Shown here in pieces: positions 16,273 to 20,101 of a stretch of 27,479 nucleotides of DNA. How positions within the stretch are numbered: the first letter of the stretch is position 1; every line of letters starts with the position of its first letter. Both the position numbers and the translations under genes were made by a program. The stretch comes from Dehalococcoidia bacterium (GTDB lineage: Bacteria > Chloroflexota > Dehalococcoidia > Tepidiformales > Tepidiformaceae), in contig JALOAP010000001.1 in the NCBI GenBank assembly GCA_023228745.1, forward strand, positions 1 through 27,479, written 5' to 3'. The notes under the pieces were generated by a model. That model searched no databases. It saw nothing but the letters and a program-made list of their open reading frames with translations, and had not been told where the DNA came from.

Positions 16273-17151
16273 GTGGATGGCTTCGATGTGACCCCAGTGG
16301 AAGGGCTTCGATCGCCCGTCGTGATCATGGCCTTCACGGGCTGGAGCGATACCGGCACCGTGACAACCGACGTCGCCGACCGGCTCGTGCGGGCTTACAG
16401 CGCGCAGCGCTTCGCGACCGTGGACCCGGAAGACTACTACGTCTTCACCGACACGCGGCCGACCGTGCGACTCGATGTCAACGGCGTGCGCGAACTCGAA
16501 TGGCCCCGGAACGAGCTGCACTACGCCCGCCTGGCGGACGCGGCCCACGACATCGTCATTGTGAGTGGCGCCGAACCGAACCTTCGCTGGCGGACATTCG
16601 CCGAGCGGCTGAGCGAAGCGGTCGCCGCCTGCCAGCCGTCGCTGGTGTGCACGCTCGTCGCCCGTCCGGCGGCCACGCCACACACGCGGCCCGTGCCCGT
16701 CACGGGCTCCTCGGCCGACCCGGCCTTGGCGGCGAAGTTCGGCCTCGGCCGGTCGCTCTACCAGGGGCCGACGGGCATCCTTGGCGTCATCCACGATGTC
16801 CTGCGCAGGAAGTACAACGCGCCCCTTATCAGCCTGGCCGCAGGTGTGCCCCACTACCTGAACACGGACGAAAACCCGCCGGCGACGCTGGCACTTCTGC
16901 GCGCGCTCGAACCGGTTATCGGCCTTCCGCCACCGCTTGGCGACCTCGAAGAGCAGGGCGTCACCTTCGTCCAGCGCGTGGAAGAGGCGTCGCAGGGCGA
17001 CGAGCAGATCGCCGCCTACGTCCGCACGCTGGAAGAGCATTACGGCGAAGAGGAAGAGATCGAGGATGAAGGTGGCCCTGCCGAGCTGCCTTCGGCCGAT
17101 GATATCCTGCGCGATGTCGAAGACTTCCTCCGGGGGCAAGGCGAACCGTAG
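16273..17151 (+). CDS. PAC2 (proteasome assembly chaperone-like) family protein
   Basis: AFTGWSDTG, DPEDYYVFTDTRP, GAEPNLRWRTF, PHTRPVPVTG, YQGPTGILGV, VPHYL; start GTG at 16273 follows TACAAT by 6 nt. Confidence 0.88.
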   Translation: MDGFDVTPVEGLRSPVVIMAFTGWSDTGTVTTDVADRLVRAYSAQRFATVDPEDYYVFTDTRPTVRLDVNGVRELEWPRNELHYARLADAAHDIVIVSGAEPNLRWRTFAERLSEAVAACQPSLVCTLVARPAATPHTRPVPVTGSSADPALAAKFGLGRSLYQGPTGILGVIHDVLRRKYNAPLISLAAGVPHYLNTDENPPATLALLRALEPVIGLPPPLGDLEEQGVTFVQRVEEASQGDEQIAAYVRTLEEHYGEEEEIEDEGGPAELPSADDILRDVEDFLRGQGEP

Positions 17152-17180
17152 CCGGCGGCCCCCGGCCGGGGGAGGACAGG

Positions 17181-17702
17181 ATGTCCGTCCGTAACGTGCT
17201 CTGGAGACTGGCGTCACCCTACGATGCCTACGTCTCGCACGTGGCCCGGCTGAACCACGCCATCGAACGGATCCGGTACTTCACGGAGCTCGCGCTCCGC
17301 GGCGAAGCGGTGCTCCAGAGTTCGCTGCGGCTGGTGCCGAAGCAGGGCGACGCCGCCCGCCGCGCGGCCCTCTTCCGCGAGCAGGTGGCCCGCGCCGCCA
17401 CGAGCATGGATGATGCCGAGTTCGAGGCGTTCCTGGCAGTGGTGGGCGGTGGCGAACCGGCGGAAGTGGAGTCGAACCGGGCGCGCTCCCTGCAGCGGAT
17501 GTCCAGCACGCGCAGCGGCCTCGAGCACTACTTCGGGCAGGCGAGCCACGAGCTGCGTGTGCTGGAGGAGCGGGGCTACAACCCGCAGCGGGCAGATGTC
17601 GCCCGGCAGCTCCGTGCCAACCGCCTGCCCGCCGCGACGGTGGCCGACTACCGGCGCGTCCTGCGCGAACTCGGTGCCCGGGTCGCCCAGCACCCGGTGT
17701 AG
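17181..17702 (+). CDS. Hypothetical 173-aa helical protein
   Basis: Strong GGAGG SD, GC3-rich codons, 29 nt downstream of and co-oriented with the PAC2 gene; no motif recognised. Confidence 0.7.
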   Translation: MSVRNVLWRLASPYDAYVSHVARLNHAIERIRYFTELALRGEAVLQSSLRLVPKQGDAARRAALFREQVARAATSMDDAEFEAFLAVVGGGEPAEVESNRARSLQRMSSTRSGLEHYFGQASHELRVLEERGYNPQRADVARQLRANRLPAATVADYRRVLRELGARVAQHPV

Positions 17703-17822
17703 ACAAGTTCGCGTTGTCATCGGCCCGGACGACGGGGGATGTCGAGTCGGCCGATCAAGGTCGATGGTGATCCCGTGGTCAACTGCACGACAGCGGCAAG
17801 TTCTCAGGCGTAGGATGTATGC

Positions 17823-18089
17823 ATGGCTACCGCGTTGTCATCCCGAGGCATTTTTCGGCGAGCAATCCAACGGGCTCGGCGAGTTACGGGCCGCGAACTG
17901 CCCCCGAGCGTCGTGGTGCTCGCTCCAGACGATGCCTGGATGCTTTACGATGCCGAGGCGCGTAAGCATCTTGGCATGAGCGCAGAGGAGTTCGAGCGGG
18001 CTTGGAACCGGGGGGAATTCCGGACACGGCAGGAGGAGCCACAGGTGCGGCGAGTGTTGATGATCCGCACCTCTCGACCGAAGCCCTGA
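17823..18089 (+). CDS. 88-aa protein, antitoxin-like partner of a two-gene module
   Basis: TAGGAT-6nt-ATG start; DAEARKHLGMSAEEFERAWNRGEF resembles small helical antitoxin-type proteins (from recall). Confidence 0.65.
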   Translation: MATALSSRGIFRRAIQRARRVTGRELPPSVVVLAPDDAWMLYDAEARKHLGMSAEEFERAWNRGEFRTRQEEPQVRRVLMIRTSRPKP

Positions 18090-18098
18090 GGTCACGCC

Positions 18099-18646
18099 GT
18101 GGCTGGTGACCATCCAGCCGAGGCGCTGGCGAACTACTTGCGACCCCTCAGCCGCGCTCTACAGTGCATCGTTCCCCGGGCCACACTCATCACCGACTGC
18201 CATGATCCCCGCGATGGCCAGGACCGCTTCGTGGCACCAGCCGGCAACGCGCCGTTGCGTGTCGCTACAGTCCGCGGTGACCGGCGGTACTTCGTGATGG
18301 TTCGACAGCGCTTCCGGTTGATCGAATGGGACGACATCGACCGGGGACCCTGGAAAGTTCTACGACCAAGTATGAGTACTCGCTCTCCCACGAGGATGAA
18401 AGCGAGATACTTAGCTTCCACTACCATCCGGGTGAACAGGCCTTCAACGAGCCTCACCTCCACCTGCGGTCGGGGGCGGGCCAGCTTGGCCCCGAGCTGC
18501 AGCGGGCGCACATTCCGACTGCCCGGCTTGCTGTAGAGGACTTCATTCAGTTCCTGATCCGGGAGTATAAGGTCGAGGCTGCGCAGGACTACCGGAGGAA
18601 CTTGGAGCAGTCGAAAGGCCGCTTCGTCAAGTACAAGCGATGGTAG
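18099..18646 (+). pseudogene. Frameshifted gene (about 182 aa when joined), toxin-like protein with HYHP...PHLH motif
   Basis: Frame A reads MAGDHPAEAL...RGPWKV (18099-18359); frame B continues STTKYEYSL...EILSFHYHP...EPHLHL...AHIPTARL...* (18359-18646). Joining needs one extra base at GTT|TCT. Confidence 0.75.
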
Positions 18647-18745
18647 ACAGGCAGGGGCTCGGAACCTCGCGGTTGCAACGGAAAACGTGCCCCACCGGGA
18701 GTGCCGCTCGTGTACCGTTTGCGCATTACGCGCGGTGGTGGGGTG

Positions 18746-20101
18746 ATGCGCGTCCTGCTGGCCATGGCCGTGGCGCTCCTGGCGGTGGCGTTGTCCGCTG
18801 CCTGCAGCGAGAGCGACCCGCCGCCCATGCCATCCGTGCGCGAAGCTCGGGCCGAGCGCGATGTCGTCGACGGTGAGGCGCAGCTCACGACCACGGTGAC
18901 CGTCGCGTTCGACCGGGTCTTCGAGCTTGCCGAGAGCCGGGTCCCGCTGGCTTCGAAGTTCGAATTCGCCGTGCCCGGCTCCGGCCCAGGGGGCGACCAG
19001 CGGGTGCTGGTGCGGGAAGCGGAGGTGCAGCCGGGCAACGGGAGGGTGATCGTCCTCCGCGTCGATGCGCTCATCCCCGCGGAGAGCGAGCTAAAGGTCT
19101 CCAGGTCGGCCTTTCGTCGCAACGAGCCGGGCGAGTTGGTGAAGCCGGTAACGAGCGACCTGGCCGCGGAGATTACGCCGCTCGCCGCCATGGCCTTCGC
19201 CGTCACGCGGGAGGGGGTGCTCGGCGAGGCAGCGGAGTCGCCACCGCCGAGCGAGGCCGACCGTGACCCGGCAGTACAACGCGAGGCGCTCGCGGCCCAC
19301 CTCGACCTTCGCGGGATGCCGCCCGACGCAACCCGGCGGGCACTCGCTCGATACGACACCATCCCGCCGGAGCTGGTCCCTTCGCCGAAGCTGCGGGCGG
19401 CGCTGGCGGGCCTCACCGGTACCTTCGCCGAGCCGGCAATCGATGACCTGTTGACCGCCGCCAACTGTACCGAAGCCCCCGTCTCGCGCATCGTCTTCGA
19501 AGCCCCGCCCGACGAACCGGACCTCTTCGCACGGGTGACATTCGAGGACACGGGTGCACGCGTGGTGTCCATCGCGCCCGCCCTCGAAAGCGAACCCTTC
19601 GAGCGGCTCATCCCGGTGCTCGCCCACGAGGCGGTGCATTGTGACCGGGAGGATGGGAAGTTCGAAGAGGTGGCGGCAACAGCGTTCGATACCTTCCTCT
19701 GGATCCAGCTACTTTCCGTCGACCCGTCGCTCGCGGAAGGGCGCACCCAACTGGCACGGGAGTTGAACATCGACGCCGTTGCGATGTTCAACAGCGGCCG
19801 GCGCTTCCCGGAGGCGCTCGGCCTGCTGCCGAGCGTGGGTGTGGTGCAGGCGCTTCCGCTGACGAGCGCGGAGCACCGCTCGTTCGCCGACCTGGTGGCC
19901 GCAGCCTACGGGAGCCTTGGGAACAATTCGCCAGATGAGCCGCTCGCCCGGCAATACGTGCAGTTGCTCGCGCAGGCGACGGGGCACCCGGAGGGGTCGC
20001 CATTCAACCTCATCTACCTGGACGAGCTGCTGAGCCGGGCAACGAGTTCCGGCTTGCTGGCTGCGCTGCTCGAGATCTACGAGCTGGCGCCGACTGGCTA
20101 G
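18746..20101 (+). CDS. Lipoprotein with beta-rich N-terminal domain and C-terminal HEXXH (zincin-like) motif
   Basis: MRVLLAMAVALLAVALSAA-C lipobox; VLAHEAVHCDREDGKFEEVAA. Confidence 0.7.
   Translation: MRVLLAMAVALLAVALSAACSESDPPPMPSVREARAERDVVDGEAQLTTTVTVAFDRVFELAESRVPLASKFEFAVPGSGPGGDQRVLVREAEVQPGNGRVIVLRVDALIPAESELKVSRSAFRRNEPGELVKPVTSDLAAEITPLAAMAFAVTREGVLGEAAESPPPSEADRDPAVQREALAAHLDLRGMPPDATRRALARYDTIPPELVPSPKLRAALAGLTGTFAEPAIDDLLTAANCTEAPVSRIVFEAPPDEPDLFARVTFEDTGARVVSIAPALESEPFERLIPVLAHEAVHCDREDGKFEEVAATAFDTFLWIQLLSVDPSLAEGRTQLARELNIDAVAMFNSGRRFPEALGLLPSVGVVQALPLTSAEHRSFADLVAAAYGSLGNNSPDEPLARQYVQLLAQATGHPEGSPFNLIYLDELLSRATSSGLLAALLEIYELAPTG

Follow-up and report, generated by a model that had tools for sequence, protein, structure and literature searches.

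Within a 27.5-kb contig that forms the whole of the window analysed here, and that belongs to a metagenome-assembled genome of 3.54 Mb (586 contigs, 83% complete), a small intact gene is followed by a reading frame that loses its register partway through. The locus raises the question of whether the two frames downstream of the small gene are pieces of a single gene, whether the break between them exists in the organism, and what the gene pair encoded before the break. A sequence-only reading had proposed an 88-aa gene, a GTG-start ORF 9 nt further on, and a -1 shift that leads to a stop at 18646 and a protein of 182 aa. The same arrangement was obtained when we re-read the sequence, and we used it as the basis for the comparisons below.

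Layout of the locus

The 88-aa gene runs without a break on the + strand from ATG 17823 to TGA 18087-18089, with AGGA at 17812-17815, 7 nt before the ATG. A gap of 9 nt separates it from the large gene, which begins with GTG at 18099; the sequence GAGG at 18088-18091 overlaps the TGA of the 88-aa gene and lies 7 nt before this GTG. Frame 0 of the large gene reads ...CGG GGA CCC TGG AAA GTT (GTT at 18357-18359), encoding ...DRGPWKV, then falls out of register and meets a stop at 18534-18536. Meanwhile, the -1 frame is open from 18326 and closes with TAG at 18644-18646. From 18362 onwards this frame has the family-typical sequence TTKYEYSL...PHLHL...HIPTARL...KRW, with FHYHPGEQAFNEPHLHL in its middle part and KYKRW at its C-terminal end. 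Joining 18099-18359 to 18362-18643 gives 182 residues, including one unknown residue at the break. A promoter and terminator scan of the region found no sigma-70-type consensus and no terminator. The features used in the text are as follows.

17145 to 18706, + strand: variable stretch of ~1.56 kb holding a 173-aa ORF and the two-gene cassette; its flanks are 57 bp apart in the congener G002
17703 to 17822, + strand: intergenic leader, 5' of the 88-aa gene, with the AGGA noted above
17823 to 18089, + strand: 88-aa small partner gene, a TumA-like putative antitoxin, with a ~54-aa core containing LGMSxxEFxxxWxxGEF and a helical model; a related motif occurs upstream of canonical TumE genes
18099 to 18359, + strand: first 87 codons of the TumE-like gene, read in frame 0 from a GTG start to the residues RGPWKV
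18357 to 18361, + strand: lesion site, with one base absent between 18359 and 18360, in the codon after Val (ancestor TCT or ACT)
18362 to 18646, + strand: C-terminal 94 codons and TAG in the -1 frame, with conserved YxY, HYHP (family consensus HWHP), PHLH, HIPT and R..E

One gene interrupted by a missing base

Five close homologs found by a word-indexed search (179-191 aa, 36-55% identity) align end to end and are collinear across RGPWK[VA][STN]T, with no break at the lesion point. A profile search of 1.84 billion representatives returned 2,223 proteins at E<=1e-3, and 1,433 of these reached E<=1e-10. Nearly all of the top 150 matches are 170-190 aa long and match positions 1 to 182, and the 143 matches at E<=1e-30 are mostly full length, again 170-190 aa. 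A comparison across WKV-STT had been suggested as a check on the joined protein; when it was run, the homologs proved to be single, continuous proteins of ~180 aa. Given this continuity across RGPWK[VA][STN]T, exactly one base is missing at 18359/18360.

The codons of two relatives place the loss directly. The homologous stretch is TGG AAG GTC TCG ACG in L018 and TGG AAG GTG ACT ACC in L019, and the window is one base short after the Val codon. The residual CT fits either TCT (Ser) or ACT (Thr), so there are two equally good ancestral reconstructions. The lesion had earlier been written as GTTTCT to GTTCT; the loss of one base stands, while the ancestral TCT is only one of these two equal options.

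The full-length protein could still be made, at a low and regulated level, if ribosomes underwent a programmed -1 slip at the lesion site. The downstream frame is indeed open and well conserved, and low-level synthesis of a toxin is a conceivable form of regulation. However, the stretch CCC TGG AAA GTT CTA (18348-18362) contains no X XXY YYZ heptamer, in agreement with the earlier remark that a canonical slippery site is missing, and the homologs are all single ORFs, none of which needs a shift. The runs AAA and TT are also too short for transcriptional slippage. We therefore give a programmed shift almost no credence.

Most of the family signature has survived in the interrupted gene. In the joined large protein, 23 of the 26 positions conserved in at least 80% of relatives are retained, and the exceptions are W109Y in HWHP (Trp in 96% of relatives), G142A, and W165Y, the last of which is common to close relatives. 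This near-complete retention speaks for a recent lesion. The best reading of the locus is thus that the large gene is a young pseudogene and that the 88-aa antitoxin-like gene has been left as an orphan.

The deletion in other assemblies and strains

The out-of-register 106-aa ORF is called with identical sequence on contigs of ERZ27247346, ERZ27247376, and SRR8449813. Over 12.3 kb, 7 substitutions and 1 indel separate the ERZ27247346 contig (36.9 kb) from the window. When Logan contigs from four runs were placed on 17700-18800, a 732-nt contig from a 2025 sediment metagenome of another study crossed the lesion site gap-free with a single SNP, the synonymous 18282 C>A. At least three haplotypes from different samples, all of them seen as assembled contigs, have the deletion in common. 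The contigs of runs X3 and X7 end before the lesion site; we did not take these gaps as polymorphism because both runs also show gaps elsewhere, at 2-4x depth.

These contigs bear on whether the frameshift arose only during sequencing or assembly, with the organism itself carrying an unbroken gene. Such an error is conceivable, given that the lesion site lies in a short run (AAAGTT), that the source is a fragmented MAG of many contigs, and that two runs have contigs ending before they reach it. Against it, the identical lesion occurs in the three assemblies named above and in the 2025 sediment run, two of these having SNPs elsewhere, and runs of two or three T are not error-prone in short-read data. 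The long genes of the window had been described as intact, and the neighbouring long genes were indeed found whole. An artefact is thus very improbable. Of the two possibilities that the sequence-only reading had left side by side, real inactivation and assembly error, the recurrence in three assemblies and an independent run favours the first. Contigs from other samples show the same lesion, two of these contigs alongside SNPs, and it is therefore not an assembly error. The one-base deletion is genuine and common to all sampled strains, at a contig-level view in which a minority intact allele is possible.

Further strain SNPs were observed in run X3, a leachate metagenome. The SNP 18226 G>A would turn Arg43 into His, a residue found in relatives at this position, and two others, at 17861/17865, fall in the N-terminal, non-conserved part of the 88-aa gene.

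Relationship of the large protein to TumE

Standard annotation resources do not name the pair. Both proteins and their relatives were scanned with Pfam, NCBIfam, and PADLOC, and no match rose above threshold. Against the Pfam model of TumE (DUF6516, PF20126; gathering score 23.4 bits), the joined protein had no match at E<=1, and none of 108 family members had one at E<=0.1. PDB sequence-profile searches with both proteins returned only chance matches to ribosomal proteins (E ~0.03-0.5). The family itself is large: clustering at 50% identity gives 2,223 clusters, most of them from Chloroflexota and Actinomycetota.

An AlphaFold2 model of the large protein, built from 108 sequences, has a pLDDT of 94.8 and a pTM of 0.91, and is predicted to consist of an N-terminal helix, ~9 antiparallel strands, and two long C-terminal helices. 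The conserved cluster comprises H108, H110, H120, H122, H138, R143, and E147. Foldseek found nothing in the PDB at E<=0.001 for this model, and an exhaustive VIA-align search of solved structures peaked at a Z of 6.1, which VIA-align itself rates as noise. Foldseek against the AFDB clusters returned uncharacterised proteins and a partial DUF4160 match, with no TumE entry. In the ESM Atlas, the matches were unnamed Actinomycetota clusters and a cluster with PF20126 in 11% of its members. This last cluster had a structural TM of 0.51/0.54 and a feature score of 0.90, and 55 of the 100 nearest clusters were in that set.

This lead was followed by profile comparisons, for which the relatives and 300 genomes of the phylum supplied Pfam-positive TumE ORFs. 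With hhalign, the 108-sequence family alignment matched 8 TumE sequences at a probability of 63% and the set of 27 Pfam-positive TumE ORFs at 94.1% (P 1.2e-7, 128 columns, score 50.0). Twenty column-shuffled controls and one reversed control all scored 16.3 or lower, against 50.0 for the real alignment. The match spans the N-terminal helix and the sheet, with the motifs YxY, [YF][HD][WN]xP, and PHxH aligned, and reciprocal HMM searches between the large-protein family and TumE gave cross-matches of 1.8e-5 and 1.2e-6. Judged by these profile matches, the large protein is a remote homolog of TumE that lies outside the Pfam family as currently defined. The likeness of HxHP...PHxH to DUF6516/TumE, first noticed from the letters of this gene, therefore holds as remote homology, on the evidence of hhalign (94.1%), the HMM cross-matches, and the Atlas.

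TumE-TumA is a validated toxin-antitoxin system whose toxin inhibits translation and whose toxin gene usually lies downstream of the antitoxin gene (PMC10584680). TumE has an alpha+beta fold in which two helices pack on a seven-stranded antiparallel sheet (PMC10584680), and no solved structure resembles it (PMC10584680; Durairaj et al., Nature 2023). The cassette shares with this system the order of its genes (the small partner first, the larger protein, here with a predicted alpha+beta fold, downstream), profile homology over almost the whole length of TumE, and a GMSxxEF..G[ED][FL] partner, which in this phylum also precedes canonical TumE genes. For neither family does a solved structure resemble the protein, and both have a patchy, multicopy distribution. 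The two also differ in several respects. Proteins of this clade are ~180 aa long, compared with ~100-160 aa for the sampled TumE ORFs, and have an additional hairpin, whose RGPW motif the closest relatives conserve, as well as extra C-terminal helices. HWHP in this clade stands against YDNxPH in TumE, and the Pfam model does not detect the clade. In the window, moreover, the putative toxin gene is broken, and its function is predicted from homology.

Two other families were considered and rejected. DUF4160 (PF13711) resembles the large protein in a Foldseek match over residues 75-173 (E 1.7e-4, TM 0.41/0.65) and in a strand followed by a PHxH motif, which reads PHFH in DUF4160 proteins. However, the hhalign probability was 3.8%, there was no HMM match, Pfam included, and the Foldseek match is only partial, covering half of the large protein. 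We take DUF4160 to have different gene partners as well. DUF2290 (PF10053, with a PADLOC model too) matched the C-terminal half weakly and below threshold (E 0.063 in Pfam, 0.016 in PADLOC), with an ESM Atlas feature score of 0.84, but every match was far under the curated cut-offs and no relationship is supported.

The small partner and the gene pair

A partner HMM was built from four upstream small proteins and iterated on six-frame ORFs of the fetched loci. It describes a core of ~54 aa with the consensus ...LT..EA..LfD..Ar..LGMSgEEF.raW..GEf......v.rv.ml, which was found in 20 distinct relatives' loci. In all 20, the core immediately precedes the large gene and has the same orientation, and the loci with no partner match are mostly cut by a contig end. 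The gap between the genes is 9 nt in L017, as in the window, and 12 nt in L019. The earlier suggestion of a conserved gene pair in Chloroflexota and Actinomycetota is upheld, with homologs in MAGs of both phyla.

The AlphaFold2 model of the 88-aa protein has a pLDDT of 81.5, with a core above 90, and predicts helices at 35-50, 54-62, and 73-80 and a less confident N-terminal helix. The protein had no match in Pfam or the PDB and no recognised DNA-binding or antitoxin fold. When 1,304 ORFs from 29 canonical TumE loci were searched with the partner HMM, six were matched (best in L037, E 8.6e-7), and each of the six immediately precedes the TumE gene in the same orientation. The pattern ...YE.kYGMSs.EF.rRf..GeL... 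is common to these ORFs and the partner in the window. An hhalign comparison of the partner with the TumE-side ORFs gave 94% (P 1.3e-7, 39 columns), a score with some circularity, since these ORFs had themselves been selected by the partner HMM. The position of these partner-like ORFs beside TumE is independent, non-circular evidence.

Variants of the pair were also seen. A locus of the same class (L010:855-1488, from G037) has two tandem copies of the small gene upstream of one large gene. In L018:1-226, the small partner upstream of the homolog P0006 is seemingly split over two frames, which may be a sequencing error, as the contig names point to a long-read assembly.

Distribution, genomic setting, and decay

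The records of relatives, obtained by searching genome contigs with a 6-sequence alignment, come from Dehalococcoidia, Tepidiformaceae, Anaerolinea, other Chloroflexota, Actinomycetota, and one Deltaproteobacteria MAG. The large-protein family was found in 13 of 61 relatives and in 23 of 301 genomes of the phylum (E<=1e-8), with up to 11 copies per genome. This patchy, multicopy, accessory distribution is typical of type II toxin-antitoxin modules.

The two-gene module was not found in the congeners G001 and G002. In G002, which is 91% complete, 57 bp separate the flanking PAC2 gene from the 466-aa gene; G001 has the 173-aa ORF, with ruvC after it. The GC content of the cassette is 0.60-0.64, compared with 0.70-0.72 in its flanks. 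Neither gene has a further copy in the window's genome, which also gave no match to canonical TumE (PF20126). A search for repeats that would mark mobile-element boundaries detected none, direct or inverted, on either side of the cassette. The cassette looks acquired: its GC is below that of the flanks, it was not found in two congeners, and the family is patchy, multicopy, and broken in several relatives.

Three copies, all in MAGs, look broken. The copy in G003 (L008) lies in two frames and has a truncated partner; a record titled Tepidiformaceae (L023) gives the same HMM matches as this one. The G046 copy has in-frame TAG and TAA stops, and the G043 copy has an N-terminal frame change.

Proposed function and its alternatives

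Taking these lines together, we consider the probable explanation of the locus to be a recently inactivated putative toxin of a divergent TumA-TumE-type module, beside an orphaned antitoxin-like gene. The cassette would have a type II toxin-antitoxin layout, with the small antitoxin first and the toxin directly downstream and probably co-translated, and would belong to a divergent, longer (~180 aa), so far unannotated clade of the TumE superfamily. By analogy with TumE, the His/Arg/Glu cluster may form the active site of a translation-targeting, possibly RNase-type, toxin. The toxicity of the large protein, its neutralisation by the 88-aa protein, and its biochemical target are likewise predicted from this analogy. 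The cassette would represent a lower-GC accessory insertion in this Tepidiformaceae-like species, in which a single-base deletion after codon 87 has truncated the putative toxin.

The pair could instead be a conserved operon in which a small helical regulator or chaperone accompanies a metal-binding enzyme and which has no toxin-antitoxin function; the frameshift would then be the loss of a dispensable accessory gene. The conserved His-rich motif could bind metal, the partner is without a known antitoxin fold, and there was no match in defence or toxin-antitoxin libraries. However, both genes are remote homologs of the two components of a validated toxin-antitoxin system, and a patchy distribution with up to 11 copies per genome and frequent decay suits selfish modules better than a housekeeping enzyme. 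We regard this operon as unlikely, though the least remote of the alternatives.

Within the toxin-antitoxin explanation, loss of the toxin with the antitoxin kept might itself be selected, the orphan TumA-like gene conferring anti-addiction or immunity on the arrival of TumE-like cassettes. Selection of this kind would account for the recurrent toxin-side lesions (the window, G003, G046, and G043), and we rate it as distinctly doubtful. The broken gene itself is a case of routine pseudogene decay in a poorly known family, and the repeated inactivation of the putative toxin beside an intact partner adds modestly to what is known of the way such modules decay.

The family is a more useful result than the broken gene. 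It extends the TumE superfamily to a longer architecture with motifs of its own (RGPW, HWHP, PHLH, and HxPTGR). No Pfam, NCBIfam, or PADLOC model covers it, yet both genes are tied to TumA-TumE, which provides a testable annotation for thousands of hypothetical proteins. As a more speculative reading, the 2,223 clusters might form a branch of separate function, with an active site made up of the His cluster and a target other than that of TumE.

Neighbouring features

Three features around the cassette were recorded. The 173-aa ORF (17181-17702, + strand) lies between the PAC2 gene and the cassette; it has 59% identity to its G001 counterpart, and none was found at the corresponding position of G002. 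A 12-nt direct repeat with identical copies, CGCGTTGTCATC, occurs at 17710-17721, just past the stop of the 173-aa ORF, and at 17831-17842, just inside the start of the 88-aa gene. By our own estimate, ~0.1 such 12-nt repeat pairs are expected by chance per 2 kb, and the repeat could be an operator-like element or chance. Finally, the 466-aa ORF (18701-20101, + strand) has a lipoprotein-like signal (…LAVALSAAC) and a HEAVH (HExxH-type) motif, is listed in the gene tables without a Pfam family, and is conserved in both congeners.
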